From: Obrimoposthia wandeli
Taxonomy: Eukaryota
DNA length: 64,000 bases
Reading direction: 5' to 3'
NCBI GenBank assembly: GCA_977020255.1
Contig: CDROCS010002078.1
Location: 124,001-188,000 of the forward strand
Under the pieces are notes generated by a model, which was not told where the DNA came from, searched no databases, and saw nothing but the letters and a program-made list of their open reading frames with translations. This document shows, one piece after another, positions 15,313 through 39,877 of the stretch. Within the stretch, counting starts at the first letter, position 1; every line of letters begins with the position of its first letter. Position numbers and translations under genes: made by a program.

Positions 15313-15904
15313 ATTTTAATGTACAAAATTAACAATTTTAACCGAAATATCCGTACTTTCATCTACTGTTGTGTGCAAATTTGATTTTTGCATTTCATTA
15401 ATCATTTCTTTCACTGACCCTGACTTATTAATAAAGACATCGACATTTTATAATCTGTATTCGTAAAATCATATACCATAATAATTTCTTCAGTTCTCAC
15501 CGTCGGTACATATTTATAATTTAATTAAAAGCTAAAATATTAATGATACCTTTAAACCCCATCCTAAAATATTATTTTCATTAAAGGGAAATATTTCATG
15601 TTGTGTTATATAATTCTTATAAATATCATGTTAATTATTTTTATATCCTACAATATCAGTTGCATAATCATGAAGGTGAAATTACAGGTAGAGTTTGAAT
15701 TTTTGTGAATGTATAAAATAATAAATTTGTTAGGTTTGAGAATTAAGAAATTTAAATATTTTAGTCGATTAAATACTAAAATAAAAATCCTTGAAAGCAA
15801 GGTTGAAAATTAAATTAAATATTAATTTTAGTTTTAGAATTGAAATTAGTGGAATTTAGGGTAAAAATTAGGAGGACCACGAAGGTCGTGTATAATGTGA
15901 AATG

Positions 15905-15911
15905 TATAAAA
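15905..15911 (+). promoter_or_regulatory. Candidate TATA box in LTR U3
   Basis: TATAAAA ~180 bp into the LTR, upstream of a strong splice donor. Positional inference only. Confidence 0.4.
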
Positions 15912-16015
15912 GTTAGATTAATTAACCCAAAAGTGCAACAAAAGACACATTAACTAAGCAAAGAAGAAAAAAGGGAACAATATCGAACGTCAATCAAAAT
16001 CGAACGTCAATCAAG

Positions 16016-16066
16016 GTAAGCACATTTTCGTGCAGTTAAATTGGAGTGTTTAAAATTAATTTTCAG
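16016..16066 (+). other. Candidate 51-nt mini-intron / splice donor inside the LTR
   Basis: AAG|GTAAGC ... TAATTTTCAG|CTG: canonical donor and acceptor. Also present in both duplicated copies in the 3' LTR. Confidence 0.45.
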
Positions 16067-16596
16067 CTGCCGCAAAAGACTCCAGTTGAAACCGCTGTCG
16101 ACATTGCTGACTGACAGACAGGAGTTGCAGAATCGACTATAAAAGTCGTCGACAAGAAAACGAAATACACAACCGGAAAAAGCAATATCCCAATCTACTG
16201 AGAAATAGACCACAAAAAACCAAGGAAAACCAACATTGTCCCTAGCAGCAACAAGGTGGTTTTGTGATAGACTTGGAGATTTAATTATTGATTTAGCAAA
16301 CTAACTGATTGGGAAATTCTCACGTTTCGTCACACAAGACTTAAAGATCAATCTATCACGGATTTGGGCAACGTCGTAACAGCGACATACAAATCGATTC
16401 TATTCAACCGAACTCGATCTATCACGGAGCAGAGCTTGTGAACCAGTTCAATTGTTGTTCCAGTCAGCACTATATCAGCGAATTTTCATTCGGCAATTCA
16501 AATTCAGTCAGCCGATCGGTTTTTGTGTTCGATCTCAGTATATTCCGGAACGCTTCAGGATATCTCAACCTCGAGACAAAAAACGTAAGAGAGATT

Positions 16597-16948
16597 ACTA
16601 AAATTTGTCTCAATTGTCCTAAAGTTGTCATAAAGTTTGACACTAAAATTGTCTCAATTGTCCTAAAGTTGTCATAAAGTTTGACACTAAAATTGTCTAA
16701 ATTGTCCTAAAGTTGTCATAAAGTTTGACACTAAAATTGTCTAAATTGTCCTAAAGTTGTCATAAAGTTTGACACTAAAATTGTCTAAATTGTCCTAAAG
16801 TTGTCATAAAGTTTGACACTAAAATTGTCTAAATTGTCCTAAAGTTGTCATAAAGTTTGACACTAAAATTGTCTAAATTGTCCTAAAGTTGTCATAAAGT
16901 TTGACACTAAAATTGTCTAAATTGTCCTAAAGTTGTCATAAAGTTTGA
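16597..16948. repeat. 44-bp tandem array in the LTR (~8 units)
   Basis: GACACT recurs exactly every 44 bp (16639-16903, 7 occurrences). The 3' LTR has the same count (38877-39141). Confidence 0.95.
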
Positions 16949-17329
16949 AGAGAAGTTTTGTCTAAATTGCCATAAAAGTTTGAAGAGAAGTTTTTGTCTA
17001 AATTGCCATAAAAGTTTGAAGAGAAGTTTTGTCTAAATTGCCATAAAAGTTTGAAGAGAAGTTTTTGTCTAAATTGCCATAAAAGTTTGAAGAGAAGTTT
17101 TGTCTAAATTGCCATAAAAGTTTGAAGAGAAGTTTTGTCTAAATTGCCATAAAAGTTTGAAGAGAAGTTTTTGTCTAAATTGCCATAAAAGTTTGAAGAG
17201 AAGTTTTGTCTAAAATTGCCATAAAAGTTTGAAGAGAAGTTTTTGTCTAAATTGCCATAAAAGTTTGAAGAGAAGTTTTGTCTAAATTGCCATAAAAGTT
17301 TGAAGAGAAGTTTTGTCTAAATTGCCATA
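16940..17329. repeat. 35/36-bp tandem array in the 5' LTR (11 units)
   Basis: Unit AAAGTTTGAAGAGAAGTTTT(T)GTCTAAATTGCCAT(A). 11 units here versus 6 in the 3' LTR (39178-39390). Confidence 0.95.
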
Positions 17330-17824
17330 GTTTTGGTATAAAGATAAAAGTTTGCCATTAAAGTTAAATTGGGAATTAAAGTTAGAGTTTGACATAAAAG
17401 TCACATTAATTTGAAAATCTATAACTTGAGCTTATTCGCGAGTTAGAGGAACGACTCTAAAAACTCGATCACCCTTAACATAAAATCGATACGTGGTTCA
17501 TCCCCACTTGTTGTAGAGACTTACAGAAGTCTTAGGAATTTTTACTATACTTTTTAGAAAATACGTACATAAACGTATTGTTGTGTTTTAGTTTCGTGAA
17601 TTACAAATAAACAATTTCCTACATTAGAACAAGTTGTTTTTGCACCCTTCAGAATAAGAGACATCAAATCAAATACCTTCAGATAGTACAAGAGATAGGC
17701 AACCATAACACTAAGTAGGCCACGACCAACTTTAAGACCTGCTTCTAATCGAACTCACGTTGGGGCCCTCCGCACTCAAGAGGATCTATACAAAGTTTCG
17801 TATAGAAACCCCAACATATTAAAG

Positions 17825-17842: not shown

Positions 17843-17870
17843 TAGCTCGTCGGACACAGCGAATTCACGT

Positions 17871-18703: not shown

Positions 18704-18720
18704 GTCAGTAAATTTTATAA

Positions 18721-18931
18721 GTGAGAATCGAGTGGATTGATACTCGAAGTAATTAATTGAATAAGTTAAGTCGGGAGACTCTGTCCTCGAACTAATTAAA
18801 AAGATAAAAATCGTAAATAAATTGATAAAGTGAGAATCGAGTGGATTGATACTCGAAGTAATTAATTGAATAGGTTAAGTCGGGAGACTCTGTCCTCGAA
18901 CTAATTAAAGAGATAAAAAATCGTAAAATAA
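18721..18931. repeat. ~109-bp tandem duplication in the 5' leader
   Basis: GTGAGAATCGAGTGGATTGATACTCGAAG...AAAAATCGTAAA occurs twice (18721, 18830). Confidence 0.9.
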
Positions 18932-19350
18932 GAATTGTGAAATAAGATAAAAATAATAAGTATATTGATATAGTAAACGAATACATAATTGATAAGACAA
19001 CGGATAATAGAAAAGGACCCGCGTTTAATACTAGAAGACAAAGCCAGATTCCCAAGGAAGAGACAAATAATAATAAAGTTAACCGAATTGAACAGGTTCC
19101 CCAAACAGATAACAAAGTAACAGAAAAGACTAGAGTCGAAGAAAACGTATCAGAAAGAGACGTAAATCAATCAGCAGTTTCAACCGATAGTTTTGATCTG
19201 ACTGAGTTAATTGGTGACATAAACCCAGAAGAAATTGATAATCTTGAAGTTCAAAACCCAGAAGAAATTGAAATTGCCAATCCAGTAGTTATTGAAGAAG
19301 TTCAAGTAAATAATATTGAAGGAATAGTTGAAGAGGATATAGCTGAAAAT

Positions 19351-22300
19351 ATGGCTCACCCAGGAGCTCAAGCAGATATTAATGCAGGAAATAATGTAGG
19401 TGAAATGAATGCCGAGCAGTTGGCACGAGCTTTAAATGCGACGTTGAGACCCAATTTTTCAGGATCATTGCAGATTACAAAGTTTAAAGGAGATGAGGAA
19501 AGTATTTGTGACTTCCTCGCAGAATATTCGAGTTGTGCAGATGTTCAAGGATGGAACGATAAAGAAAAATGTGTCAGAGTACAGGCACACTTAACCGGAT
19601 TAGCACTTGAAGTGTATAAACATTTGACAGAAGCAGAACGTTTAGATTGGCCAACGTTGGAAAATGCTTTTATTGGAAAATTGGTATTAGGAGACTTAGC
19701 CAAAGTAAATAAGCGACTCATGAGAGAACGGAAACAGAAACATGATGAAGGCGTGAATGAATACGCGTATGTTTTGAGAACCTTGGCCGCAAGAGCGTAC
19801 CCAAGAAGAATAATGAGAAATCAGGACGGTAATCCTGTAGCTCCAGAAGCACAAGCAGCGGAAAATGACCGGAACCAAAATGAAATGGCAGAGGTTTTGT
19901 TAGATATATTTAGAGGAGGATTGAAAAAGGATATTAAAGTGTTATTAGCAGTATCGGATACAAATGATTTTGATAACGCCGTACGAAAGGCGAGAGAGAT
20001 TGAGAAAAATATAAAAAATAACGCAGCATTGGCAATTTACGCAATGACTGCAGGTGACGACGATAAGACAAAGGTCTTCGTGAATAAAACAGAACCGAGT
20101 AATTTTCAGAATCGAAATTATGGACAAAATAAGTTCGAAAAAGTAGATGAATCCAGTAACGGAAATAGAGATAATTTCCGAAGTAGGAATCGAGATGATT
20201 CGAGAGGTAGAAATAATAGTGAGTCTTGGAACAGGAATCGAGATGATTCAAGAGGTAGAAATAATAATGATTCGTGGAATAGAAATAGAGATGATTCCAG
20301 GAATAGATTTAATAGAGATAATTCAGGAAATCGCCAACCTTGGAGAGGAGACGATAGGAATTATAACGCCAACAGAGGAGAGCGAAGTGACTCTCGATTT
20401 GGAAATAATACAGGAAATAGCGACGGAAGATTCAATAATCGAGGAAGCGGTTTTGAATTGAATTTCCGAAGAAATGATTTTAGAGGACGCTATGATAATA
20501 GACAGAATAGTCGTCGAGTACAGTTCGAAGATGAACAAAATAAGATAGATATTCGAGGGAGAATAATGTGTTATACGTGTAAGCAAATGGGTCACTATTC
20601 GAGAGATTGTACGAGAAGTAAAGAGTTCGGAACTAACAGATTTGGAAATAATAATTTCGGTAATAATAATTTTGGAAATAATTACAGAGGATATAATTCA
20701 CCTCCGCCATGGAATAGAGGTGGTGGATATACTCCACAGCCATGGAGACTGAATAATCAGTATACAGATAGACAACAGTCACCAGGTAGATACAATAACT
20801 ATGCAGACAGACAGCAAGGAGCTGAGAGATACAATAATTACGTAGGACAGCAAGGAGCTGAGAGATATAATAATTCCGGTAGATATAATAATAATAATAA
20901 TGTTGACAAGACAAATAGTCGTGAGAGTTCGCCGAAACCGAAAGGAAATTTTAGTTATGTAAGCGATGACAGTGATAGGAATCGCGAAACCGAGCTGCGA
21001 CGCGAAATAGATTTTGAGGATAGTGATAGTAAATTTGAACGAATGTTGGGAATAATTAAAGATTCACCACATACAAAGATGGCAAATTCATCTACGTTGT
21101 CGAAACAAGAGAAAAGTCTACATTCGAGAGAAGAGATGAATGATTTAATGAATAGAATATTAGAAGCGTATGAGACACCAATAGAGAAAACGTGTAACGC
21201 ACAACCTATGACTGATCATGTAGAAGCAGCAAGAAATGCTACGAGTATGGAAAATGTAAAAAAGATAATTAGTGAAGCTAAGGAGACGTTAAATCAACCG
21301 TTAGATGAAACGAGTGAAGCTCCAGAAGTTTTGGCCAAATTGCAAACAATTAAAGTGCACCGATTGGAAGAAGTGCGTGCAGAATTGGTTAAACATAGTC
21401 ATGATAACTTGGGTTACAAAGAAGTACCCCGAGGACTACTGAAAGGTTATGGTCGTTATGTACAGAGATCAAACCAAAAAGGAACGATGAAAATTTCACT
21501 TCGATTAATTTCCGGACAGATAATACATGAAAAACTTAACGTGTATCAAACAATGAAAACGATTCGGAAAAAGTTGGCTGAGAAACTTGAAATTGATGGA
21601 ATGAATATGTTGTTCCATTATAAAGGGAGATCACTAGATGATGAGGACGTACCAGTCGAGTTTGGATATCCGATAGGAAATGAATTAGAGGAAAAAATTG
21701 ATGTCATCACTGTAGGACGTCAAGAGTTAGTAGATAATGAAGGATTAACCGAGATATTGAATTCTGCGTTAGAAATGATAAAAACGCCTATAGAAATTTT
21801 AGACAGTTCAAGTGAAAGCGGAGATAATGATGTAGCTGAAGCTTGGAACAAGACATCCACACCAGAACCATACGTAGCTGAATTACAAGACGTGGAACTA
21901 GAAAATGAGTTGACGACTCCAGTGGTCGAAGTACCACCAGAACCAGAAATAATTCAAACCAGACAAGATGAAGTCACGGATACAGCTAACCAAGTGAGAC
22001 AAAGCGAAACCGTAACCCAACTAGTAGGAGAAGACGAAGTCTCCGAGATTGTAGATTTGGATTCACCAATTTGGCATGCTGCATACAAAGATAGACAAGC
22101 AGAGCAGATGATGCGACAAAATGAAGAGATTGGCCATGAAGAAGGACCAAGTCAAGAGATACAGTATAATGATGAAACGTATGATCCAGGAGAGAATCAA
22201 GCTGAGTATCAGTATTTTCGAAGAGGACCTGGAAGACCTAGAAAAGGCAAAAGTATATTACGAAATGTTCTAACTGCACCACAAACTGATGAAGAAAGAC

Positions 22301-25299
22301 ATCTAAGCATTGGACAGTTAGCAGCGTCATTAGAGCAGTATAGTGCAGAGAGGAATGAAGATATCAGAGGTGATATGAATTCGGAAACTCCAAGTAGTAA
22401 AGATATACTTACGGGAATTCTCAGGCAAGTGAAGCCGAAGTTGTTCAAAATGTATAGAGATGAAACAACCGATATAACAGACAATTTGACTAAAGCAGTC
22501 AGATCACAGATGTCTGCAGTAAAGAGAATGACCGCGAATCATGTATACCATGCATCAATAGATAGATTTTATGACGGTGAAGTTTTAGCGAGATTATGTG
22601 GAAACCAGACTACAAATAAAAAGTTAATTACAGCGATCACATATCTATGTTTCCAATTGACGGAACGAACGAGCCAACCTCACGAAGTCAAACAAGGAAT
22701 AAATGAAGCAATGTATTTGATAGAGAATGTATTACAGAGACGAATTGACGAAAATGGAGGTTGGGCAAAATTAAGTGACTATGCTAAAACCATTGTGGAA
22801 ATGAATGAAGACGATGACGAACAATGTCATGAGAATCGTCAAAAGGAAAATAAACAATACCGTCCGAAAGAGAGAAACAATCAACCAAATATGTCCACAA
22901 CAATGATGATGATGATGTTAGTAATGTTCATGGGAATGCAACAGGCATCAGGATTGATAGCATATGACTGTAGCATACCAAAGATGGGACAAAAGTATTC
23001 ACTGCTCGACAGCGAAGACTGCCCAGAGTCACAACCGTCAAAATTAGAAGTTAAAGGTGTTGAAAACTACTTTGTGTATCAGGATGTTGATAAAGTACAA
23101 GTAGAAGTGAAAGAATGTTCAATCCATTCAAGTTATCACGAATTCTATTGTGGCCATAGAAGTTTTATGTCGGAAATCACACCTACCACACCGTACAAGG
23201 CACATAAGGTTTTGCCGAGAGATTGCGAAGACGCATTTCGAACGGGAACAATAGAGGTAGACAAGAATTACAAACCTGAAGTAAAAATTGGAGTGAGACG
23301 ATACGAAACAGTCACGAGAGTCGGACAACGATGGGCCGATGGATCCTGTGACGGAGAAACAAAAAACGTGCGTGGAACCAAAGTATCTGAGTTAGTAATG
23401 GACGTAACTTACAAAATCGAATTAAAAACATGGACCGCCAATTTTGATAAAAAGACACAACTAATGATGAAGTATCCAGAATGTAAAATGACAGATACAT
23501 CTTGTTTTACAGGCGAATCCACAATTGTGTATCAAATAAATCCGAAGCAATGCTCTTTAGTATTTTTGAAAGAGATTAGTTTTAATAAAATAAAAGGGTT
23601 CCTGTATAATAAAGATGGAGAAGGGTTCCTGTATAATAAAGTTGGAAAAGGATTGCTAAATGAAACAAGACCAATTCCAATGACAAAGACACCTACACTG
23701 TTAATGGCAACATCAATAGAAGAAGGATTGATATTTATTAAAAAGAGAAACAAAGCGCGATGCGGAATGACTGTTAGTACCACAAACTATCCAGGAATAG
23801 TTTTGTCTAAAGAAGCAATAGCATTGGCAGAAACCAAGCTAAAACCAAAAGATATGCAGCTACACACGTATTTTAATAATAAAATTGATTTCTATTATCA
23901 TAAAGGATTGATGCAAATGGAACAGTTATATCGGATGATGATCGAAAGAGATTGCCAGCTAAACAAAGAGATCGTAAGAACAAAGTTAGCATTAGCTATT
24001 ACGAATCCAGACATGGTAGCACCATTATTACCCTTGGATGAAGGAGTATTTGCTAAAACCATGGGAGAAGTATTGTATACTTACAAGTGTAATAAAGTAG
24101 AGGTACAGTTGAGAAAAACAGATCGATGTACGAGTGAATTGGCAGTAACGTATAATTTAAAAGATCTTTTTGTTGAACCAATCACGAGAATGTTACTTCC
24201 AAAAGACACTCCAACTAAAGAAATCAGCTGCTCTAATATAATGGCACCTGAATATCAGATGACGAATAATCTATGGATAACGTTACCTGATCGGAAGCCA
24301 ACGACAACCCCAGCGATGATAAGAATGACGAATCTTAAAGGTAAAATGAAATTCCAAGCGGTGGAAAATATGGAGAACGCAGGATTGTACAATGAAAAAG
24401 ATTTAAAAGCGGCGTGGAACGAAATAATGTTTCCAGTAAGAAGAGCCAGAGTACTTACGGAGAGTGTACATCGAGCATTACCACCAGGAGCGAGATATGC
24501 GAATTTCGATATGTTATTATCGCCAAGTCATTTCAAGGAAGCAGCACATCAGACACTTAGAAAGATGTGGGGGAAATTCCTTGTTTTAGGACAATTATTT
24601 TCGGGTATCATAGGTATTTATGTTATAATTAAATTTGTGCAGGTAATTATAGCCCAGGTGTTGTCTACGTATAGTTTATACAGGATAACCGGAATCACCT
24701 GGCAACTTATAATTGGATGTTTTCCATTTTTAGCAAAATATCTAATGCACCATCATCACGAGAACGAGTTGCGAGCCCTCAAGAAGGAACAACACCAAAC
24801 AAGAACCATGATGCGAGAACCAAGAAACTATCGAGACGATAACGACGACGATAATGATAGTCCAGAAGTATATGCAAAGATACCAGGAAAACCAAAGATT
24901 CCGTTACCAGACAAGGAAGAAGTGGCGTTAAACCTATATCCAATGAAGGAACTAAAGGAGGAGAAGGAAAAGTTCAAGAGAGGCATCTTAATGATAAGAT
25001 GGCCTAAAGTGAGCTACAGTGAAATTCCACAAGCAGAGGAAAAAGACAAAAAAGATAATTCCAGAAGAATTCTAAAGTCTAGGATATCAAATGAGAATCC
25101 ATATGCTCCACCACAAGTAGCAGTAACATTGAACGAAAGAGAATATCTTGCCGAAGTTGATACCGGATCTGCAGTATCAGTACTGAGTAAAGAAATCTTG
25201 TCATCAAAAGAATTAAGAGAAGTATGTCCTAGAAAACAGACATTTGTTAACGTGAATGGTACAGATGTAGTGTCGGAAGGAACACTAAAATGTTCATAG
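19351..25299 (+). CDS. gag: Polyprotein segment 1 (1,982 aa): Gag CA/NC - Ubl - AT-hook - Bcl-2-like - chuvirus-like glycoprotein - N-terminal half of aspartic protease 1
   Basis: Gag capsid motifs (ITKFKGD...GWNDKEK...LTGLA...W..LENAF; RKQ..DEGVNEY...LAARAYP). CCHC knuckle CYTCKQMGHYSRDC at 20569-20610. DTG at 25159-25167. Ends at a TAG in mid-protease; the frame is also open without ATG from 18946. Confidence 0.95.
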   Translation: MAHPGAQADINAGNNVGEMNAEQLARALNATLRPNFSGSLQITKFKGDEESICDFLAEYSSCADVQGWNDKEKCVRVQAHLTGLALEVYKHLTEAERLDWPTLENAFIGKLVLGDLAKVNKRLMRERKQKHDEGVNEYAYVLRTLAARAYPRRIMRNQDGNPVAPEAQAAENDRNQNEMAEVLLDIFRGGLKKDIKVLLAVSDTNDFDNAVRKAREIEKNIKNNAALAIYAMTAGDDDKTKVFVNKTEPSNFQNRNYGQNKFEKVDESSNGNRDNFRSRNRDDSRGRNNSESWNRNRDDSRGRNNNDSWNRNRDDSRNRFNRDNSGNRQPWRGDDRNYNANRGERSDSRFGNNTGNSDGRFNNRGSGFELNFRRNDFRGRYDNRQNSRRVQFEDEQNKIDIRGRIMCYTCKQMGHYSRDCTRSKEFGTNRFGNNNFGNNNFGNNYRGYNSPPPWNRGGGYTPQPWRLNNQYTDRQQSPGRYNNYADRQQGAERYNNYVGQQGAERYNNSGRYNNNNNVDKTNSRESSPKPKGNFSYVSDDSDRNRETELRREIDFEDSDSKFERMLGIIKDSPHTKMANSSTLSKQEKSLHSREEMNDLMNRILEAYETPIEKTCNAQPMTDHVEAARNATSMENVKKIISEAKETLNQPLDETSEAPEVLAKLQTIKVHRLEEVRAELVKHSHDNLGYKEVPRGLLKGYGRYVQRSNQKGTMKISLRLISGQIIHEKLNVYQTMKTIRKKLAEKLEIDGMNMLFHYKGRSLDDEDVPVEFGYPIGNELEEKIDVITVGRQELVDNEGLTEILNSALEMIKTPIEILDSSSESGDNDVAEAWNKTSTPEPYVAELQDVELENELTTPVVEVPPEPEIIQTRQDEVTDTANQVRQSETVTQLVGEDEVSEIVDLDSPIWHAAYKDRQAEQMMRQNEEIGHEEGPSQEIQYNDETYDPGENQAEYQYFRRGPGRPRKGKSILRNVLTAPQTDEERHLSIGQLAASLEQYSAERNEDIRGDMNSETPSSKDILTGILRQVKPKLFKMYRDETTDITDNLTKAVRSQMSAVKRMTANHVYHASIDRFYDGEVLARLCGNQTTNKKLITAITYLCFQLTERTSQPHEVKQGINEAMYLIENVLQRRIDENGGWAKLSDYAKTIVEMNEDDDEQCHENRQKENKQYRPKERNNQPNMSTTMMMMMLVMFMGMQQASGLIAYDCSIPKMGQKYSLLDSEDCPESQPSKLEVKGVENYFVYQDVDKVQVEVKECSIHSSYHEFYCGHRSFMSEITPTTPYKAHKVLPRDCEDAFRTGTIEVDKNYKPEVKIGVRRYETVTRVGQRWADGSCDGETKNVRGTKVSELVMDVTYKIELKTWTANFDKKTQLMMKYPECKMTDTSCFTGESTIVYQINPKQCSLVFLKEISFNKIKGFLYNKDGEGFLYNKVGKGLLNETRPIPMTKTPTLLMATSIEEGLIFIKKRNKARCGMTVSTTNYPGIVLSKEAIALAETKLKPKDMQLHTYFNNKIDFYYHKGLMQMEQLYRMMIERDCQLNKEIVRTKLALAITNPDMVAPLLPLDEGVFAKTMGEVLYTYKCNKVEVQLRKTDRCTSELAVTYNLKDLFVEPITRMLLPKDTPTKEISCSNIMAPEYQMTNNLWITLPDRKPTTTPAMIRMTNLKGKMKFQAVENMENAGLYNEKDLKAAWNEIMFPVRRARVLTESVHRALPPGARYANFDMLLSPSHFKEAAHQTLRKMWGKFLVLGQLFSGIIGIYVIIKFVQVIIAQVLSTYSLYRITGITWQLIIGCFPFLAKYLMHHHHENELRALKKEQHQTRTMMREPRNYRDDNDDDNDSPEVYAKIPGKPKIPLPDKEEVALNLYPMKELKEEKEKFKRGILMIRWPKVSYSEIPQAEEKDKKDNSRRILKSRISNENPYAPPQVAVTLNEREYLAEVDTGSAVSVLSKEILSSKELREVCPRKQTFVNVNGTDVVSEGTLKCS
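21487..21717 (+). other. Ubiquitin/SUMO-like domain within segment 1
   Basis: MKISLRLISGQIIHEKLNVYQTMKTIRKKLAEKLEIDGMNMLFHYKGRSLDDEDVPVEFGY...IDVITVG (77 aa). Follows the beta-grasp pattern and the SUMO-like F.Y.G..L.D...P.E.G...IDV pattern; no terminal GG. Confidence 0.75.
22290..22790 (+). other. Putative Bcl-2-like helical domain
   Basis: YLIENVLQRRIDENGGWAKL resembles the BH2 helix (cf. YL...L..WIQENGGW..F). Upstream is a weak BH1-like segment, and a hydrophobic stretch follows. Confidence 0.5.
22891..24744 (+). other. env: Env-like glycoprotein of chuvirus G / class III type with internal signal peptide and TM
   Basis: Signal peptide MSTTMMMMMLVMFMGMQQASG, then LIAYDC...SLL...C...FYCGHRS...G...DGSCDG...YFNNKIDF...DCQL...LA..NP...GEVLYTYKC..VEV..R....C..EL.V...F.EP.TR.L...ISC, then WGKF..LG....G.IG plus hydrophobic TM. 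This follows the recalled chuvirus glycoprotein cysteine and motif pattern. Confidence 0.85.
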
Positions 25300-27732
25300 A
25301 ATATCGATGGAAGAGCATTGCAGTTAAATGCTAGAATATTCACAGATTGCGGAAGTCCAGTCATGATTGGGATGGACGTAATAAGAATGTTTGAAGGAAT
25401 AATTATACTACCAAACAACAAGAGTTGTAAGAATGACAGTTCAGTGAGAGAGATAAAAATGTTGAGAGGACCTATAGTCGAAAAGGAAAAATGCACTACG
25501 TTCCGTATGGGAGGTTCGTACCCAGACAGAAAACAGGAAGCGCTAGCAAAGTCGATACTTCACTACAAAAATGTAAATTTCGGACCACAAGATACGACGA
25601 GGAGAAAAATAACATATGTGAATCTGTCAGAAAGGGATCCCATGAGATTCGAGAGAAAGAGACGAAATATATTAGAACAGTACTATTCAAAAGGAATGGC
25701 ACGTAAAATGGCAAGATCAGGTTTAGAAATGCTAAACGCGACAAGTAGTTATGGTCATGAGATAGTAGTACGATGCGTATGGTGTAGAGTAAAGTTTAGA
25801 GAATGGGAAAAGAATGAAAACCCAATGAGACGTCATAAAAGAGATGCACCAAATTGTCCTTTTCTTTTGAAACTAAAAACGTCAAACGTACCAGAAATCC
25901 AAACGGGAAAAGCACCCGATTTCGATTACAGTGACGGGATTCCGAAAGGAGAATCAGCTCTAATAGCAGGAAGAGTAATAACGAATAGTCGAATTGAAGA
26001 TATATTCGAAGTTATGCGAGAAGTGATCGAATGTGACGAACAGTATCGAGAAATAACTTTCGAAGACCCAAGACTTAAAAAATTGGCAAAAAAGGGACTT
26101 TTTGCTATAAAAAAGGATGGTAAAGACGTAATTAAATGCCACAAGTGTAAAAAAGAACGAATTATCGACAGATATACTCTTGAGCTACCTAAGAAAATTT
26201 TACATCATGAATTTTGCGAATTTTGTACTTTTAAAAATAAAATAAAGCAAAAAGAACAGAAAACCGAATGTATAATCGAATATCAGATCACACGGAAAGA
26301 GATTTTGGCTCAACAAGACACACCGGTAGTGTCATTCGTGAGAAGATTATATCCAAAAGAAGCAGAAAGAATCAGAGAATTGGTAGAATTAAAAATAAAA
26401 ACTACGCGAAACGGATACGGATCGATTTTTGAATTACTGCGAGATAAAGATGACAGTACAATTGAAACAAAAGAGAAAGAGTACATAAATGAACTAGAAT
26501 ACGTACTAGAAGATCCGGAATGCGCAGTTTGCATGGTCAACAAAATAGAAGTTGCCTTTCTACCATGCGGACATGTAAGAACATGTCGGAGATGTGCAAA
26601 TGAAATGGTATCATGTCCAATTTGTCGAAGAATAATAGATCGACAAGTGAGAAACATTAGATTTCACTATCCAAACATAGGAAGTGGACTGACAGAGTGT
26701 AATAATTCGATAAATACAATATACCATATGGGAAACATAAATGGAGCACAGCGACCAGCAGCTATCATTAGAGTAAATAATTTAAGTGTAAAAGCCTTAA
26801 TTGATACAGGTGCTGTAGCTTCGATAGTAAGTGAAGACTGTTTGACAGAGGAACAGAAACGAACAATGGCAGAACCAGATGAATTCTTGGTATCGGTCAA
26901 TGGAGACCTTGTAAAAGTGACGGGAATATTACCATGTACATTTATAATAGGACGTAATACGATCACTATACCAGTTAGAATCATGAAAGAATGTCCTGAA
27001 CCTACAATTTTAGGAATGGATGTACTATCACAACTTAAAGGGATAAGTATTGATTTACAAGATCCAAGATTGAAGGATAGCACATCAAATAGACAAATAA
27101 ACCAAATTAATGTAATTATAGAGAATCCTATAAAAATCGGTAAAAGATCGCAATTTCTTATTCAAGGTCACACATTATCAGAAGATAAAGGACCAGTTGT
27201 GTTCGAACCATCACGAGATTTCATAGAGAAATACGAATTACCAGTTGTGAGTACAGTATGCCTGATCGAAAACCACAAAATACCAGTTAGACTGATGAAT
27301 ACAACCAACAATGACATTCTATTATACAGAGGAATGAGGTTGGGAAAGATAGCACAGATGGAGAATCCCACCGTGTGTGCTATGAAACTCGATAAAGATA
27401 CGAATGATTACGAAGAAATAGTAATCCAATCAGAAAGACTGACAACTAGAGAAAAGAAACAATTACTTGATCTAATACATAAATTTCCGAAAGTAATTGC
27501 AAAAAACCCATATGACATAGGAGAAACACCTGTCATAAAACATACAATACCACTGACAGAAGACAAAGTAGTCAGAAGAAGACCATATCGAGTACCATTA
27601 CAGTTACAAGATGAAGTAAAAAGTCAGATCGAAGATATGTCTAAAACAGGAGTAATTAGACCGAGTTTTTCGCCATTCTCAGCACCTGTGGTGTTGGTAA
27701 AAAAGAAGGATGGGAAAATGATGGGAAAATGA
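25300..27732 (+). CDS. Polyprotein segment 2: rest of protease 1 - BIR - BIR-like - RING (IAP) - protease 2 - N-terminal part of RT
   Basis: Same frame as segment 1 after the TAG (track ORF 25318-27732). BIR CVWC-x16-H-x6-C (25774-25857); second BIR-like LAKKGLF...KDVIKCHKC; IAP-type RING CAVC...PCGH..C..C...CPIC (26521-26628); DTG at 26803; ILGMD. Confidence 0.93.
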   Translation, partial: NIDGRALQLNARIFTDCGSPVMIGMDVIRMFEGIIILPNNKSCKNDSSVREIKMLRGPIVEKEKCTTFRMGGSYPDRKQEALAKSILHYKNVNFGPQDTTRRKITYVNLSERDPMRFERKRRNILEQYYSKGMARKMARSGLEMLNATSSYGHEIVVRCVWCRVKFREWEKNENPMRRHKRDAPNCPFLLKLKTSNVPEIQTGKAPDFDYSDGIPKGESALIAGRVITNSRIEDIFEVMREVIECDEQYREITFEDPRLKKLAKKGLFAIKKDGKDVIKCHKCKKERIIDRYTLELPKKILHHEFCEFCTFKNKIKQKEQKTECIIEYQITRKEILAQQDTPVVSFVRRLYPKEAERIRELVELKIKTTRNGYGSIFELLRDKDDSTIETKEKEYINELEYVLEDPECAVCMVNKIEVAFLPCGHVRTCRRCANEMVSCPICRRIIDRQVRNIRFHYPNIGSGLTECNNSINTIYHMGNINGAQRPAAIIRVNNLSVKALIDTGAVASIVSEDCLTEEQKRTMAEPDEFLVSVNGDLVKVTGILPCTFIIGRNTITIPVRIMKECPEPTILGMDVLSQLKGISIDLQDPRLKDSTSNRQINQINVIIENPIKIGKRSQFLIQGHTLSEDKGPVVFEPSRDFIEKYELPVVSTVCLIENHKIPVRLMNTTNNDILLYRGMRLGKIAQMENPTVCAMKLDKDTNDYEEIVIQSERLTTREKKQLLDLIHKFPKVIAKNPYDIGETPVIKHTIPLTEDKVVRRRPYRVPLQLQDEVKSQIEDMSKTGVIRPSFSPFSAPVVLVKKKDGKMMGK

Positions 27733-29984
27733 GATTCTGTATAGATTTCAGAGAACTGAACAAGATCACAAGAAAAGATGTGTATCCATTACCTAGAATC
27801 GAAGAGATGCTCGATAAATTGGGTAATTCAGATTATTTTACAACATTGGATTTGCAGAGTGGATACTGGCAAATCGAGATAGAGGAAGAGGATAAACACA
27901 AAACAGCCTTTTCCTGTGGAGATGGATTATACGAATGCGAAAAGATGCCATTTGGACTGACAGGAGCTCCAGCAACATTTCAGCGTTGCATGAATTTTGT
28001 ACTCGCATCGTGTGCAAACACGATGGTTTATATTGATGACATAATAATATTTTCGAAAACGTTCGAAGAACATTTAAAAAATCTTGAAGTTGTATTTAAA
28101 AGACTGGAAAACGCTAAATTAAAAGTTAAACCTACAAAATGCGAATGGGCTAAAGAGCGAGTAACATTTTTAGGACATATAGTATCGAAAGAAGGCATTC
28201 GACCTGATCCAGCGAAGATCGAGAAAGTAAAAGCGCATTTAGCGCCAAAGACTGTTAAAGAGATACAGAGTTTTTTAGGTCTTGCGAATTATTATAGACG
28301 ATTTGTTGAACATTTTTCAGATATAGCAACACCATTGAGAAAGTTGACGAGGAAAGATGAGAAGTTCATATGGGGAGAAGAAGCCCAACAAGCGTTCGAG
28401 CATTTAAAAGAAAGACTGATAAAAGCACCAATATTAGCGTTTCCAGATATAAACCGACAATTCATACTCATGACAGATGCAAGTAACTATGCTGTAGGAG
28501 CAGTATTGGGACAAGAGGATGACGAAGGAAGAGAACACGTCATTGCGTATGCGAGTAGAGGATTAAACAGAGCCGAAAGAGTATACTCTGTTATCGAAAA
28601 GGAATGTCTAGCCATAGTGTATTCATGTAGACAGTACAGACACTATTTGCTAGGACAAAAAGTATTCCTGTATACAGATCACAAACCACTACAATTCTTA
28701 TATAAACATAGAGATGAGATGAGTAGATTAAACAGATGGTTTCTAAAATTGGCCGAATTCGATCTAGAAATCCGTTATAGAACCGGAAAGTCGAACGGCA
28801 ACGCAGATTGTTTGTCGAGATTGACAAATGTAGACGAGAAAGGAAACATAATTCCAGAAGAAGATGAAACCAATGATCAAAAAGGAGAAGCAAATCTACT
28901 GACGATTTTGCTAAAAACGGGTAAAATAGACAAAGAGATCATCAAAGAACAGAAAGAAGATGAAGAACTGAGTCTAATCAAAGAATTGTTGGTGAAAGGA
29001 GACCTAAACGATGAAATGACGAAAAAATACTCGATAAAAGAAGGAATCTTGTATATTGTCAATAATGTCGGAAAGATAGTAGTAGTAATTCCGAAGTCAT
29101 TGAAAACAGCAGTGATGATCCAGTATCACGACGGAACACTAGGAGGACATCTGTCAGGGCGAAAGACGATAGCCAGAATCAAAGAGAAGTACCATTGGGA
29201 TGGTATGGAAGACGACATAAAACAATGGTGTAAACAATGTAAAGTATGTTTAACCAGAAAAGACACCGGAACTCGTACTAAAGTTCCGTTGAAACCAATG
29301 CCAGTTCCCTTGGCACCAATGGAATTCACAGCGATGGATATATTGGGACCATTGAGAGAATCAAGTAAAGGAAACAAGTATGTCATAGTATTTACGGATT
29401 ACATGACGAGATGGGTAGAAGCATATCCCATGCAGAACCAGAAAGCTGAAACAATAGCACAAATCTTAGTGGAAGAGATAATATTTCGATATGGAGTGCC
29501 TAGAAAATTGCTAACAGATCAAGGTAAGAACTTCACTGGAGAAGTCATAAAAGCAGTATCGAAGATATTCGGAATCATGAAGTTACAAACTTCACCATAT
29601 CACCCACAGACAGATGGTCTGGTAGAAAGGTTTAATAAAACTTTATGTATGATGGTACAATCCTATTGCTCCGACAAGCAAGAGGATTGGGATAAATATT
29701 TACCTTCATGTTTATATGCTTACAGGAATTCAGTTCGAGAGGCGATGGGTCACACACCATTCTATCTGATGTATCTCAGACAGAACAATATGCCGATGGA
29801 TCTGGAGTGGACCGAGCCAACATCTCAGTATCTAGAAACTGAACAATACATTGTCGTTATGAAGGAAAGGTTACAAGATGCTTGGACCAAAGCCGGATTG
29901 AAGTTGAAATTCAATCAAGAAGGTTACAAGGAACAATACGACAAAAAGCAAAACCACATGAATTTAGAGTCGGAGATCAAGTGA
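27729..29984 (+). CDS. pol: Polyprotein segment 3: RT - RNase H - integrase
   Basis: YIDD (28029-28040); RNase H TDASNYAVG...EKECLAI...TDHKPL; IN HHCC zinc finger, MDILGP, TDQG, HPQTDGLVERFN. Separated from segment 2 by an 11-bp duplication. Confidence 0.97.
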   Translation: MRFCIDFRELNKITRKDVYPLPRIEEMLDKLGNSDYFTTLDLQSGYWQIEIEEEDKHKTAFSCGDGLYECEKMPFGLTGAPATFQRCMNFVLASCANTMVYIDDIIIFSKTFEEHLKNLEVVFKRLENAKLKVKPTKCEWAKERVTFLGHIVSKEGIRPDPAKIEKVKAHLAPKTVKEIQSFLGLANYYRRFVEHFSDIATPLRKLTRKDEKFIWGEEAQQAFEHLKERLIKAPILAFPDINRQFILMTDASNYAVGAVLGQEDDEGREHVIAYASRGLNRAERVYSVIEKECLAIVYSCRQYRHYLLGQKVFLYTDHKPLQFLYKHRDEMSRLNRWFLKLAEFDLEIRYRTGKSNGNADCLSRLTNVDEKGNIIPEEDETNDQKGEANLLTILLKTGKIDKEIIKEQKEDEELSLIKELLVKGDLNDEMTKKYSIKEGILYIVNNVGKIVVVIPKSLKTAVMIQYHDGTLGGHLSGRKTIARIKEKYHWDGMEDDIKQWCKQCKVCLTRKDTGTRTKVPLKPMPVPLAPMEFTAMDILGPLRESSKGNKYVIVFTDYMTRWVEAYPMQNQKAETIAQILVEEIIFRYGVPRKLLTDQGKNFTGEVIKAVSKIFGIMKLQTSPYHPQTDGLVERFNKTLCMMVQSYCSDKQEDWDKYLPSCLYAYRNSVREAMGHTPFYLMYLRQNNMPMDLEWTEPTSQYLETEQYIVVMKERLQDAWTKAGLKLKFNQEGYKEQYDKKQNHMNLESEIK

Positions 29985-30708: not shown

Positions 30709-32031
30709 ATGGTATTACGTAATTCACATGGGAAAAGAGATATCATGAGAGTCCATTTAATCGACGCTGACACTGAAAAGATAATTTGTCAGATGGACAC
30801 TAAATACTTTGATGGAAAGACAATTGTATGTTGTATACCAGAATCTCACCGGTTAGACACAGATCAAACGGAAGTATCTGTAAGGTTGAGCGTAATAGAA
30901 GGATTCCATTCGCCAACCCATCCGGAAGTGACTAACAATAAAATCATCAAAGCAACGGCAGAATTACGCATTGACAGCGGATACCGGAAGTGGGAAGCTA
31001 AAAATAAAAAGCCACAAAGAATCAATATGATCCGAGAACAAGTGACCAACTCAATCCAGCCAAAATATCATGCTGAAATAGTATCATCCGCGCCAAGTGT
31101 GATCACATCGATAAACGACGAAATTATAATTTTACTAAAAAATCGATGGCCGTCATCAACTGAGATACGAGTAAACTTAATTAATTATGCGAAGACACCG
31201 ATATCTAAGCTGAATGTTACCTATTTTGATGGATTGTCCATCATGGGTAAATTGGAAACAATTGTCATGTGCTATGGAGCACAGTTCCAAGTTGAGATAC
31301 TTAAAGATAGTGTAATACCGTATCCGATTCACAAATACGAAGGGGAAATCAATCCAATTATTCTAACACCTTCATTAATTTCAGTTCAGACAGACATACC
31401 AGAATACCCTTCGAGCGAGTCTAGTGAAGACAGCGAACCGGAAAGTAACGATACAGAATCAACAGAATCCGAAGATAACATAATAGAGCGATTCGGAAGA
31501 ACCATGGAGGTTGAATTCGCTAAAGAGAGCAGAAAAAGACAAAATATAGAATTCGTGAAACAGAATATACAAGAAAGACGAATTAAATCTGCAGAAGAGA
31601 CCGAGTCGGAAGAAGACTCAACAAAGGAACAGACATCAGAGACAAAGATGAATATCTCTCCAGCAATACGAATGCTGAGAGGAAAGAAACTGGCGAAACT
31701 ATCCAACATCGACGAACAGATAGAGAAGAGATTAGAAAGACTAAAACTTGAAGAGTCAGAACTAACGCCACCAATGAGTGAGATCATTCCAGGTAAGTTA
31801 TACCTCGGAAATGTGGAGGATGCAACCGATGAAAAGAAACTGTTGAAACAAGGGATAACATATGTGATCAACGTTACAATGAATCACAAATCGCAATATC
31901 AGACGATCAGAGCTATGACATTAAGAGTAAAAGACTCAATGGACGCTAATCTTCTCGAATGGTTCGTAGAAACAAACGAAATACTTCACAGAGAACTCCG
32001 AAACCAAGGAAAAGTGTTGGTACATTGTTAG
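30709..32031 (+). CDS. Polyprotein segment 5: beta-rich repeats 2-3, acidic linker, N-terminal part of a dual-specificity phosphatase
   Basis: MSEIIPGKLYLGN...LLKQGITYVINVT...KVLVHC*. Joins segment 4 if one A is added at 30676-30679. Ends at a TAG inside the P-loop HC*KGISRS. Confidence 0.9.
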   Translation: MVLRNSHGKRDIMRVHLIDADTEKIICQMDTKYFDGKTIVCCIPESHRLDTDQTEVSVRLSVIEGFHSPTHPEVTNNKIIKATAELRIDSGYRKWEAKNKKPQRINMIREQVTNSIQPKYHAEIVSSAPSVITSINDEIIILLKNRWPSSTEIRVNLINYAKTPISKLNVTYFDGLSIMGKLETIVMCYGAQFQVEILKDSVIPYPIHKYEGEINPIILTPSLISVQTDIPEYPSSESSEDSEPESNDTESTESEDNIIERFGRTMEVEFAKESRKRQNIEFVKQNIQERRIKSAEETESEEDSTKEQTSETKMNISPAIRMLRGKKLAKLSNIDEQIEKRLERLKLEESELTPPMSEIIPGKLYLGNVEDATDEKKLLKQGITYVINVTMNHKSQYQTIRAMTLRVKDSMDANLLEWFVETNEILHRELRNQGKVLVHC

Positions 32032-33948
32032 AAAGGAATTTCTCGATCAGCAACTCTAGTATTAGCATATCTAATAAAGACTAGACGAATGCAGGTACTA
32101 GAAGCGCTAAAATACCTACAGGAGAGAAGAAGTATTGCAAACCCAAATCTTAATTTTTTGGGACAGTTGGCAAATTACCAACTTCTGTTGCAAGAACAAA
32201 GACGGATGGACGACATTCCTGAGGATCCAAAGGAAAAGAATTTCCTCCAAGCATTATCATTGACTGGGTTATTTTTAGCCGGAGTCGACAAAATTACACA
32301 GATAATGCCAAAAGTATTTTTATGTCATCCAGGAGATATAGATACTGCTGGATTAAAGTTCCACAGTATCAACCGAGTAATCAACATTGTTGAAGTCGGA
32401 AACGAGATAATTAGTCTGTGTCAAAATACTGAAGATGACACCACTCGATACATACATGCTTCCAATCGAGAAATAAACGATGCACAACAACATCTGACGA
32501 AATTGACTCAAACCATCCAAGCTGAAGTCACAGAAGGAAACGGCGTTCTGATATATCAGAAAAAAGGTACGATGTTAGCGCCTACCATAGGTGTATCCTT
32601 GTTGGTAGAGTACCATGGTCACACGCCAGAAGAAGCGATGGTCTACATCAAACAGAATAGACCGAATACGGAATTCAAACCGTTACTCGTTCGAGAAATA
32701 GAGAAATACACCGAAAAGAGGAAGCAACAACGAGAAACAAATGAAGCTACAACAACAGTGCCCAGCTTTCAATACCAAAGATTGTTAGCGATAGGCTTGT
32801 TAAGTTGTTTAATGCCGATAACGGGAGCACAAGAGATAGGCTCCAACCACGGAAATAGTTCCTGGTTCAACGAAATCCACAACTACACCATACAGTACCA
32901 TACGCCGGCACTGATGATGCTATTAGTATTGTTAGGACTAATTGATGTGTGGATCATCCGAAAATGTCTTCGATCTATGAGAACCGACAGTAAAAGATTT
33001 CAGTTTGTAAAGATGAAGAGACCAAATGGACCAACGAACAAAGTGCTTGTGTATCTAGACGAAAGGATCGAGGACAACATAGTAAATGAAGCGATATTTT
33101 ACCCACAAAACAGAATACTGAATCAATTTCGAATAGATTACGAAGCTGACCGACAGCGCACACTTGACCGAATATCAACAACATTCGCTGGATGCAAGCG
33201 AAGAAAACGAGTTGTAAAGGAAATACAAAAAGATGCTGATACAAAAGGACCAACGTATATATTCGATGGCGATGTCATCAAAACACGTGAGTATGGAAGT
33301 AAGAGAGTGATAATTGAAACGATGGAAGGACATAAAACATGTTTGTCCGCCAAAAATGGATTCGGAAAGTTGACGATACAAGGTAAACCAGTACAGTTGA
33401 TTATCGGAAGAAATGGAATCGAGGAGATGTCAAAACAACGACAGATAACAAAACGATCTAATCAGAAACAGATATCTCTCAAACGATTGATAATTAAAAC
33501 CCTTTGCAAAAGGTCGGTCAAGGCCCTGTGCACCGTTGCACAAGGATTGATCTATGGAGTAGTAATTGGATTGGTACTGCAAGCCATGCCAACCAGTAAA
33601 GCCGAATTGATGACACTATCCGAATATAATTTACATTTGAGAAATCTAGACAACACCCTAGAAATAATCAAGACATCCCACAGTAGAGCCGTGATGATCA
33701 TGTGTGTAAAAGGATGTCCAGGACGAATGTGTATAGTCCCAGCGACCGAAATGATAACACTTAATGGACATTATGGAGTTAGTGTTGTCACATGTGAAGA
33801 CTACATATTTGGACAAACTAAAATAGTGCTTCTCAGTGACATGTCCAACCAAAGTGCACACAAATTTAAAATATTAACCATCAAGAGTAAAGGAATACCA
33901 GCAGTACGTTATGGTATTCTAGAATTGGTTAAACATTACTGGCACTGA
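32032..33948 (+). CDS. Polyprotein segment 6: rest of the DSP, DSP-like pseudophosphatase, signal-peptide/TM membrane modules
   Basis: In frame after the TAG: KGISRSATLVLAYLI...EALKYLQERRSIANPNLNFLGQL. Second DSP fold (ITQIMPKVFL...INRVINI...GVLIYQKKG...EEAMVYIKQNRP) lacks the catalytic Cys/Arg. Hydrophobic segments at 32782-32829, 32908-32958 and ~33520-33603. Confidence 0.88.
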   Translation, partial: KGISRSATLVLAYLIKTRRMQVLEALKYLQERRSIANPNLNFLGQLANYQLLLQEQRRMDDIPEDPKEKNFLQALSLTGLFLAGVDKITQIMPKVFLCHPGDIDTAGLKFHSINRVINIVEVGNEIISLCQNTEDDTTRYIHASNREINDAQQHLTKLTQTIQAEVTEGNGVLIYQKKGTMLAPTIGVSLLVEYHGHTPEEAMVYIKQNRPNTEFKPLLVREIEKYTEKRKQQRETNEATTTVPSFQYQRLLAIGLLSCLMPITGAQEIGSNHGNSSWFNEIHNYTIQYHTPALMMLLVLLGLIDVWIIRKCLRSMRTDSKRFQFVKMKRPNGPTNKVLVYLDERIEDNIVNEAIFYPQNRILNQFRIDYEADRQRTLDRISTTFAGCKRRKRVVKEIQKDADTKGPTYIFDGDVIKTREYGSKRVIIETMEGHKTCLSAKNGFGKLTIQGKPVQLIIGRNGIEEMSKQRQITKRSNQKQISLKRLIIKTLCKRSVKALCTVAQGLIYGVVIGLVLQAMPTSKAELMTLSEYNLHLRNLDNTLEIIKTSHSRAVMIMCVKGCPGRMCIVPATEMITLNGHYGVSVVTCEDYIFGQTKIVLLSDMSNQSAHKFKILTIKSKGIPAVRYGILELVKHYWH

Positions 33949-37367: not shown

Positions 37368-39877
37368 TGTTAGGTTTGAGAATTAAGAAATTTAAATATT
37401 TTAGTCGATTAAATACTAAAATAAAAATCCTTGAAAGCAAGGTTGAAAATTAAATTAAATATTAATTTTAGTTTTAGAATTGAAATTAGTGGAATTTAGG
37501 GTAAAAATTAGGAGGACCACGAAGGTCGTGTATAATGTGAAATGTATAAAAGTTAGATTAATTAACCCAAAAGTGCAACAAAAGACACATTAACTAAGCA
37601 AAGAAGAAAAAAGGGAACAATATCGAACGTCAATCAAAATCGAACGTCAATCAAGGTAAGCACATTTTCGTGCAGTTAAATTGGAGTGTTTAAAATTAAT
37701 TTTCAGCTGCCGCAAAAGACTCCAGTTGAAACCGCTGTCGACATTGCTGACTGACAGACAGGAGTTGCAGAATCGACTATAAAAGTCGTCGACAAGAAAA
37801 CGAAATACACAACCGGAAAAAGCAATATCCCAATCTACTGAGAAATAGACCACAAAAAACCAAGGAAAACCAACATTGTCCCTAGCAGCAACCAGGTGGT
37901 TTTGTGATAGACTTGGAGATTTAATTATTGATTTAGCAAACTAACTGATTGGGAAATTCTCACGTTTCGTCACACAAGACTTAAAGATCAATCTATCACG
38001 GATTTGGGCAAAGTCGTAACAGCGACATACAAATCGATTCTATTCAACCGAACTCGAACTTAATTTTAGTTTTAGAATTGAAATTAGTGGAATTTAGGGT
38101 AAAAATTAGGAGGACCACGAAGGTCGTGTATAATGTGAAATGTATAAAAGTTAGATTAATTAACCCAAAAGTGCAACAAAAGACACATTAACTAAGCAAA
38201 GAAGAAAAAAGGGAACAATATCGAACGTCAATCAAAATCGAACGTCAATCAAGGTAAGCACATTTTCGTGCAGTTAAATTGGAGTGTTTAAAATTAATTT
38301 TCAGCTGCCGCAAAAGACTCCAGTTGAAACCGCTGTCGACATTGCTGACTGACAGACAGGAGTTGCAGAATCGACTATAAAAGTCGTCGACAAGAAAACG
38401 AAATACACAACCGGAAAAAGCAATATCCCAATCTACTGAGAAATAGACCACAAAAAACCAAGGAAAACCAACATTGTCCCTAGCAGCAACCAGGTGGTTT
38501 TGTGATAGACTTGGAGATTTAATTATTGATTTAGCAAACTAACTGATTGGGAAATTCTCACGTTTCGTCACACAAGACTTAAAGATCAATCTATCACGGA
38601 TTTGGGCAAAGTCGTAACAGCGACATACAAATCGATTCTATTCAACCGAACTCGATCTATCACGGAGCAGAGCTTGTGAACCAGTTCAATTGTTGTTCCA
38701 GTCAGCACTATATCAGCGAATTTTCATTCGGCAATTCAAATTCAGTCAGCCGATCGGTTTTTGTGTTCGATCTCAGTATATTCCGGAACGCTTCAGGATA
38801 TCTCAACCTCGAGACAAAAAACGTAAGAGAGATTACTAAAATTTGTCTCAATTGTCCTAAAGTTGTCATAAAGTTTGACACTAAAATTGTCTCAATTGTC
38901 CTAAAGTTGTCATAAAGTTTGACACTAAAATTGTCTAAATTGTCCTAAAGTTGTCATAAAGTTTGACACTAAAATTGTCTAAATTGTCCTAAAGTTGTCA
39001 TAAAGTTTGACACTAAAATTGTCTAAATTGTCCTAAAGTTGTCATAAAGTTTGACACTAAAATTGTCTAAATTGTCCTAAAGTTGTCATAAAGTTTGACA
39101 CTAAAATTGTCTAAATTGTCCTAAAGTTGTCATAAAGTTTGACACTAAAATTGTCTAAATTGTCCTAAAGTTGTCATAAAGTTTGAAGAGAAGTTTTGTC
39201 TAAATTGCCATAAAAGTTTGAAGAGAAGTTTTTGTCTAAATTGCCATAAAAGTTTGAAGAGAAGTTTTGTCTAAATTGCCATAAAAGTTTGAAGAGAAGT
39301 TTTGTCTAAAATTGCCATAAAAGTTTGAAGAGAAGTTTTTGTCTAAATTGCCATAAAAGTTTGAAGAGAAGTTTTGTCTAAATTGCCATAGTTTTGGTAT
39401 AAAGATAAAAGTTTGCCATTAAAGTTAAATTGGGAATTAAAGTTAGAGTTTGACATAAAAGTCACATTAATTTGAAAATCTATAACTTGAGCTTATTCGC
39501 GAGTTAGAGGAACGACTCTAAAAACTCGATCACCCTTAACATAAAATCGATACGTGGTTCATCCCCACTTGTTGTAGAGACTTACAGAAGTCTTAGGAAT
39601 TTTTACTATACTTTTTAGAAAATACGTACATAAACGTATTGTTGTGTTTTAGTTTCGTGAATTACAAATAAACAATTTCCTACATTAGAACAAGTTGTTT
39701 TTGCACCCTTCAGAATAAGAGACATCAAATCAAATACCTTCAGATAGTACAAGAGATAGGCAACCATAACACTAAGTAGGCCACGACCAACTTTAAGACC
39801 TGCTTCTAATCGAACTCACGTTGGGGCCCTCCGCACTCAAGAGGATCTATACAAAGTTTCGTATAGAAACCCCAACA
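37368..39877 (+). repeat. 3' LTR (2,510 bp) with an internal 598-bp tandem duplication
   Basis: 37462-38059 is repeated at 38060-38657. Five fewer 35/36-bp units than the 5' LTR; 2089+598-177=2510. Confidence 0.97.
39667..39672 (+). terminator. Candidate polyadenylation signal in the 3' LTR
   Basis: AATAAA ~205 bp before the LTR end (17606-17611 in the 5' LTR), followed by a GT/T-rich stretch (GTTGTTTTT). Confidence 0.4.

Follow-up and report, generated by a model that had tools for sequence, protein, structure and literature searches.

The element and its envelope gene

We analysed a stretch of 64,000 nucleotides from Obrimoposthia wandeli (assembly GCA_977020255.1, contig CDROCS010002078.1; hereafter the window), in which a long terminal repeat (LTR) retroelement spans positions 15728-39877 (24,150 bp), ends in TG...CA and is flanked on both sides by a 4-bp AATT target-site duplication. 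Its domains are ordered as Gag (one CCHC), ubiquitin-like, Bcl-2 fold, envelope glycoprotein (Env), protease, BIR, RING, protease, reverse transcriptase (RT), RNase H and integrase, followed in Pfam searches by phosphatase and then RING domains (Table 1). The 5' and 3' LTRs are 99.6-99.7% identical over their two best blocks, and the insertion is therefore young. The original prediction described the segment between Gag and the proteases as a chuvirus-like fusion glycoprotein encoded in frame with its neighbours. We found that the segment is very probably the env gene of a giant Ty3/gypsy retroelement that resembles the planarian Burro elements and belongs to the Gag-Env-Pol type with an envelope like herpesvirus glycoprotein B (gB).

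Env corresponds to residues 1316-1935 (22891-24750) of an open frame of 2117 amino acids, whose first in-frame ATG lies at 19351. The signal-like segment, the transmembrane anchor and the cysteine motifs (22960 for AYDC, 23146 for YCG, 23341 for GSCDG, 24064 for GEVLY and 24223 for ISC) were all located where predicted, in this frame and upstream of the proteases, and the DTG motif of protease 1 (25159) is in the same frame as Env.

Table 1 Positions of the retroelement's features in the window.
Feature	Position	Strand	Basis or detail
5' LTR (TG...CA), internal tandem arrays	15728..17816	+	LTR identity, AATT target-site duplication
Candidate primer-binding-site-like segment	17825..17842	+	starts TGG, 8 nt past LTR end
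Open frame, 2117 aa: Gag, ubiquitin-like, Bcl-2-like, Env, start of protease 1	18946..25299	+	
Gag CCHC zinc knuckle, one detected	20569..20613	+	PF00098, E 1.2e-5
Ubiquitin-like domain	21487..21700	+	PF00240, E 0.0044, under cut-off; phmmer matches
Bcl-2-fold domain, immediately before signal peptide	22384..22791	+	predicted model, fold searches
Internal signal peptide, cut predicted to follow Ala-Ser-Gly	22891..22953	+	n-region, core, -3/-1 residues
Env ectodomain, class III (gB / chuvirus G) fold	22954..24564	+	14 Cys, one N-glycosylation sequon
27-nt-period duplication, in frame, variable loop	23594..23641	+	exact 21-nt repeat 23594-23614 / 23621-23641
Transmembrane anchor	24607..24663	+	strongest hydrophobic 19-mer, Kyte-Doolittle 2.32
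Second, weakly hydrophobic segment	24691..24747	+	Kyte-Doolittle 1.26
YPxxxL motif, linker between Env anchor and protease	24934..24954	+	late-domain-like or tyrosine sorting signal
Protease 1, split by stop at 25297-25299	from 25126	+	Pfam
BIR	25696-25866	+	Pfam
RING	26512-26643	+	Pfam
Protease 2	26749-27042	+	Pfam
RT, RNase H, integrase, Ty3/gypsy order	27708..29606	+	PF00078, PF17917, PF17921, PF00665
Dual-specificity phosphatase, split by stop 32029-32031	31798..32181	+	PF00782
3' LTR, 596-bp internal tandem duplication	37368..39877	+	

Env was assigned to the Pfam family Monjiviricetes_fusion (PF24664) with E 3.5e-93; its score of 313 bits exceeds the cut-off of 27, and the match is therefore not due to chance. 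An AlphaFold2 model of Env built from 87 sequences (mean confidence, pLDDT, 89.8) was compared with solved and predicted structures. All 40 listed Foldseek matches in the PDB were herpesvirus gB (best E 6.2e-13, TM-score ~0.4), while the top matches in BFVD were the glycoproteins (G) of chuvirus, xinmovirus and qinvirus-like viruses (best E 7.6e-40). The top five in VIA were again all gB (Z 10.6, root-mean-square deviation 9.2, 434 aligned), with the rabies, Bourbon and Chandipura glycoproteins further down the list, and the Atlas search agreed with a chuvirus-like G. As modelled, Env is thus shown to be a glycoprotein of the class III fusogen fold, of the chuvirus-type G / gB kind, which bears out the predicted identity. 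Three results count on the other side: the TM-scores to solved gB are modest, a profile search of PDB sequences with Env reached only E 0.0021, and no R-x-K/R-R furin site was found in the ectodomain.

Upstream of Env, the ubiquitin-like domain had phmmer matches to ubiquitin, ISG15, NEDD8 and SUMO chains. The Bcl-2-like segment was weakly recognized by Pfam (E 0.09) and had no useful match in the ESM Atlas (DUF6532, low recognition) or by phmmer against the PDB. With a model built from six sequences, every listed Foldseek match belonged to the Bcl-2 family (best E 2.2e-3), and VIA gave Z 13.6 (root-mean-square deviation 2.8, 132 aligned) against Z of at most 5.4 for unrelated folds; its identity was settled by these fold searches. 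Downstream, BIR and RING are flanked by the two protease domains (25126-27042), and several relatives also have at least two proteases. After integrase, the region 30613-37104 holds phosphatase domains, four hydrophobic segments (32899, 33523, 33933 and 35247) and several RING-like open reading frames (ORFs) at 35490-37104, and Pfam counts a second phosphatase stretch downstream of the one in Table 1. Together with the BIR, RING, Bcl-2 and ubiquitin-like domains, these make up an extensive repertoire directed at the pathways of apoptosis and ubiquitin.

At the borders of the element, an 8-nt spacer separates the 5' LTR from the primer-binding-like segment (17817-17842), which seems to resemble the end of an elongator tRNA-Met. 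No clear polypurine tract was found at 37340-37367, before the 3' LTR. The tRNA type of six published Schmidtea mediterranea elements is given as 'none' (PMC13524379), for which such an 8-nt spacer could account. Tandem arrays of ~44, 35/36, 20-22, 49 and 109 nt occur in the LTRs and the leader (16469-18930 and 38707-39411), and array length is unequal between the 5' and 3' LTR. The retroelement is inserted within a small element whose inverted arms are 231 bp long (14987-15217 and 39914-40143, 99% complementary), probably a DNA transposon of the miniature inverted-repeat type. Elsewhere the window contains a Gag-protease fragment of a different retroelement (1844-2686, minus strand), a hAT transposase fragment (5272-6075, plus strand) and, beyond the element, a 108-bp tandem array (43612-44667).

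Copies, reading frame and selection

We searched the whole assembly (1.35 Gb, 6912 contigs), where a first look gave 26,000 env candidates, which are not copy numbers. In samples taken best first, all 68 scored env matches had 99-100% protein identity and all 117 scored RT matches had 100%. Frame continuity was then assessed in 40 copies other than the window's: 20 drawn from the 67 remaining env matches, and the 20 that came first among the 116 remaining RT matches. env was present in each of the 20 RT-chosen copies (18 at coverage of at least 99%, one at 85% and one at 70%). A single frame ran from the Gag capsid to the Env anchor in 11 of the 40 copies, from Env to RNase H in eight, and over the whole span in three.

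The window copy itself is broken at several places after Env, and its RT is in a different frame. The stop at 25297-25299 was found in 0 of the 40 other copies and is private to the window copy, while 39 of the 40 differ from it at the frame change near 27660-27730. Continuity from Env to Pol therefore rests on the other copies; the predicted in-frame Gag-Env-Pol chain holds for some of those but not for the window copy, where the frame ends in protease 1. Against an intact polyprotein it must be counted that the window copy cannot produce Pol in frame, that env was open end to end in only six of the 20 RT-chosen copies, and that most copies are broken.

Selection was assessed from changes common to 2-18 of the 20 RT-chosen copies, a set that is unbiased for env and in which the RT ratio is uninformative; counts on the 20 env-chosen copies were dropped as biased. 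The ratio of non-synonymous to synonymous polymorphism (pN/pS), approximate given relatedness and recombination, was 0.12 for Env (25 non-synonymous and 56 synonymous changes), 0.11 for Gag and 0.10 for the protease block. Purifying selection therefore acted on Env during the family's expansion. The duplication within env had been read as preserving the frame. It is in frame, but it was present in 30 of 30 env loci, window copy included, and in 19 of the 20 RT-chosen copies (the twentieth gave no landmark match), and it sits in the one low-confidence loop of the Env model (residues 219-243, pLDDT below 50). Being fixed in the family and confined to a variable loop, it says little, and we rejected it as a sign of special frame preservation.

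Contigs from four runs of one sample covered all 30 bins. An env-skipping joint was absent among the 15 joints listed of 238, a result that carries no evidential weight. Several single-base losses, two of them within env, occurred over 21258-29022. Their frequency was ~10-17% of depth in three runs and for the most part lower in the remaining one, and they represent sequencing errors at base runs or, alternatively, defective sub-lineages that were copied in trans.

A phmmer search with Env over 1.84 billion representatives returned 1221 matches, of which the best full-length ones were long ORFs with 30-43% identity, compared with only 22-29% for stand-alone G-sized matches. Among 15 relatives scanned, protease followed Env in the same chain in ten, and RT as well in five of those. 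A quickly computed tree had 46 rows, namely the window copy, 13 long-ORF relatives and, of 118 other near-full matches, the first 32. In it a branch with SH-aLRT 99 set the 14 long-ORF envs apart on one side, which shows coherence rather than the donor, the members having been picked as top matches. That the closest named structures are chuvirus-type G might suggest a recently captured chuvirus gene carried as a passenger, but the lower identity to stand-alone than to long-ORF proteins, the clustering of the long-ORF envs and the Env pN/pS of 0.12 largely refute this, and a recent chuvirus insertion was rejected on these grounds.

A multi-copy cox1 scored 437.9 bits under genetic code table 9, compared with 424.2 under table 5 and 420.8 under table 4, and contig C109 carries that cox1 plus a copy of the element. 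Together with ~30% GC and the likeness to planarian elements, this makes a flatworm host likely, although table 9 is also used by echinoderms and the assembly includes other organisms. Such admixture is indicated by many stop-free, bacterial-looking COX1-family genes and by one mitochondrial contig of animal type (C5352), for which table 5 is the better fit (490.5 vs 481.3 bits).

Predicted membrane topology and proposed processing of the polyprotein

The predicted signal peptide combines a basic n-region (+3), a 12-residue hydrophobic core (Kyte-Doolittle value, KD, 2.13) and small residues at -3/-1, and this layout recurred in all 13 long-ORF relatives inspected. Three of the 13 had no methionine in residues 40 to 12 preceding the AYDC-type motif, several others had one only within the hydrophobic core of the signal, and no acceptor-like site (pyrimidine-rich AG) was found in the 600 nt upstream of env. 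The recurring layout, the Met-less relatives and the absence of an acceptor-like site therefore favour an internal signal over separate initiation. Pulling the other way, the signal core is short and fails the 19-residue hydropathy threshold, and a methionine opens the signal of the window copy (22891), where separate initiation of Env is possible. Env might thus lie in frame and yet be expressed mainly from a message of its own, either spliced or started internally, that begins at this methionine, leaving the full chain for Gag and Pol only. Such expression would accord with methionine starting the signal in this family and with retroviruses and Drosophila errantiviruses, in which spliced env messages are the rule. 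We consider it improbable in view of the upstream sequence and the relatives just described, and since the full-length chain would carry the signal and anchor anyway.

Hydropathy was compared across 53 proteins, those of the 152 in which a regular-expression anchor matched. The anchor-equivalent segment had a KD of at least 1.6 in 92% of them, whereas the second hydrophobic segment did so in only 11% (median 1.27) and probably lies along the membrane. With one strong pass and a weak second segment, sequence features predict that Env crosses the membrane once and that its tail and Pol should be cytosolic, which is consistent with cleavage of an internal signal. Were the second segment to span the membrane, the full chain would place Pol in the lumen, and Pol would have to be made otherwise. 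The segment does keep its position in both polyproteins and stand-alone G proteins, but its low hydropathy here and in the 53 proteins, the motif of a cytosol-acting type that follows it and the in-frame protease and RT of many relatives make a second pass very improbable.

We assessed tail motifs in the proteins in which the profile anchor was reached (135 of 152), after dropping nine with tails shorter than 30 residues. YPxL or YPxxxL occurred in six of 12 polyproteins with env followed by protease (shuffles: mean 0.5, maximum 4) and in 36 of 114 other matches, stand-alone G-sized proteins included (shuffles: mean 2.8, maximum 8), while the control dipeptides LP and PY were not enriched in the tails. 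Two points weaken the case for this motif: YxxPhi was found in 10 of the 12 polyproteins (shuffles: mean 7.0, maximum 11), where enrichment is unclear, and all tail-motif counts take related proteins as independent. The YPx(n)L pattern also fits a tyrosine sorting signal. As YPXnL, it is the late domain that binds ALIX (PMC8402826).

The likeliest mechanism, which we hold with moderate confidence by analogy, is a signal-peptidase route in which Pol is made as the cytosolic tail of Env. Alphavirus and flavivirus polyproteins provide the analogy for such a partition of one chain. The first ~1180 residues of the polyprotein (Gag, ubiquitin-like and Bcl-2-like) would be cytosolic, after which the internal signal would direct the ribosome to the endoplasmic reticulum (ER) and be cut by signal peptidase, with the Gag-Bcl-2 part staying tethered through the spent signal. 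The ectodomain would enter the lumen until the single anchor halted transfer, and protease, RT, RNase H and integrase would follow as the tail, to be released by the element's own proteases. Gag, Env and Pol would thereby be brought together at one membrane, where the YPx(n)L of the tail may recruit ALIX/ESCRT or sorting adaptors, and the likely product would be an enveloped particle spreading from cell to cell.

The explanation as a whole, combining identity, processing and a likely particle, appears probable to us, whereas the production of free infectious particles, taken by itself, is possible but doubtful. Env may instead be processed as proposed and yet yield no free infectious particle, serving as an ER scaffold for intracellular assembly or in fusion with neighbouring cells. 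This alternative draws on the missing canonical furin site and on the use that membrane tethering of Gag and Pol might have even without infection; it is unlikely given that the whole ectodomain is conserved with its cysteine pattern under purifying selection and that the tail motif is common to stand-alone glycoproteins. A more far-reaching proposal is that these elements are active enveloped retroviruses organized in the manner of alphaviruses and flaviviruses, with a chain split across the ER membrane by signal peptidase, a spent signal anchoring a viral Bcl-2 and budding through a late domain that sits not in Gag but in the tail of Env, as it would in stand-alone chuvirus-type glycoproteins; this is conceivable, though rather unlikely. 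In a literature search that covered mostly open-access papers, we found no report of this processing scheme or of the Env tail motif.

Comparison with known systems

The layout, which the original prediction treated as unusual, was published in 2019 for the giant planarian elements Burro/GYPSM1, in which env shares the reading frame of the BCL2 and protease domains on either side of it and matches mononegavirus fusion glycoproteins (PMC6431247). Like these, the present element has one very long polyprotein, tandem repeats and high copy number, and it shares with Burro the CCHC Gag, ubiquitin/SUMO-like and BCL-2-like domains, in-frame env, BIR and RT-RNase H-integrase (PMC6431247). It is shorter (24.15 kb vs >30 kb) and has one detected CCHC compared with two or three in Burro. 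For the MATH, ankyrin and dUTPase-like features of Burro, the element gave no match in Pfam (E 0.1-0.5) or among PDB sequences; the Burro dUTPase was found by HHpred, which is more sensitive than our Pfam search (PMC6431247). Conversely, the two proteases, the phosphatase and the extra RING domains are not among the features listed for Burro in the relevant section of that paper. The element is Burro-like and, being shorter than 30 kb and compared with Burro1-4 by description only, falls outside the named Burro families. In S. mediterranea, transcription of BURRO1 and its control by PIWI have been described (PMC8532177). Burro is named for its size only in the relevant text of PMC10175614, and no Burro particle study was found among the papers listed by a search of mostly open-access literature.

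Envelopes of this kind had been said to be known mainly from BEL/Pao elements, which does not agree with the catalogue of Chary and Hayashi (2026), where GAG-ENV-POL gB-type elements with Ty3/gypsy Pol are recorded in three phyla, Nematoda, Bryozoa and Platyhelminthes (PMC13524379), with Sacco et al. 2022 cited for the nematode elements. The gB-type errantiviruses described there share with the present element the Ty3/gypsy Pol, env between gag and pol, and many near-identical copies. We found in the element the features that define a GAG-ENV-POL gB-type errantivirus: Ty3/gypsy Pol, a gB-type env with signal and anchor, this order between LTRs, and near-identical copies. By-eye comparison with the six published sequences Smed_errantivirus_1-6 placed eight cysteines of env domain I-II in the same motif contexts, matching the flatworm C1a cysteine configuration, and placed their variable loop where the element's duplication lies (PMC13524379). 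Their listed spans are 14.5-18 kb, as against 24.15 kb, and none was identical by eye to the element, which represents another family. The terms 'polyprotein', 'in-frame' and 'signal peptidase' are absent from the main text of PMC13524379.

With the layout already published, the element adds a family, not a concept. Its value is that selection on env can be shown in a family both young and very abundant, and it bears on the question raised in 2019 of whether Burro-like elements are particle-making proviruses and how the processing of a single Gag-Env-Pol chain takes place. Enrichment of the tail motif offers a cheap and specific handle on that question, one that may extend to chuvirus-type glycoproteins.

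BEL/Pao elements do carry a chuvirus-like glycoprotein (Dezordi et al. 2020, as cited in PMC13524379). Their glycoprotein is of the same family, but the present element has a Ty3/gypsy Pol and env before the proteases; membership in BEL/Pao was rejected on its Ty3/gypsy-associated Pol profiles and the lack of a DUF5641 match, which the control match P0022 has. Compared with chuvirus, xinmovirus and related G, Env has the same fold, cysteine pattern, anchor region and YP-type tail motif at ~20% identity, and it shares the class III fold of herpesvirus gB at 10-13% identity. Unlike chuvirus-type G and gB, it is embedded in the polyprotein of a retroelement.

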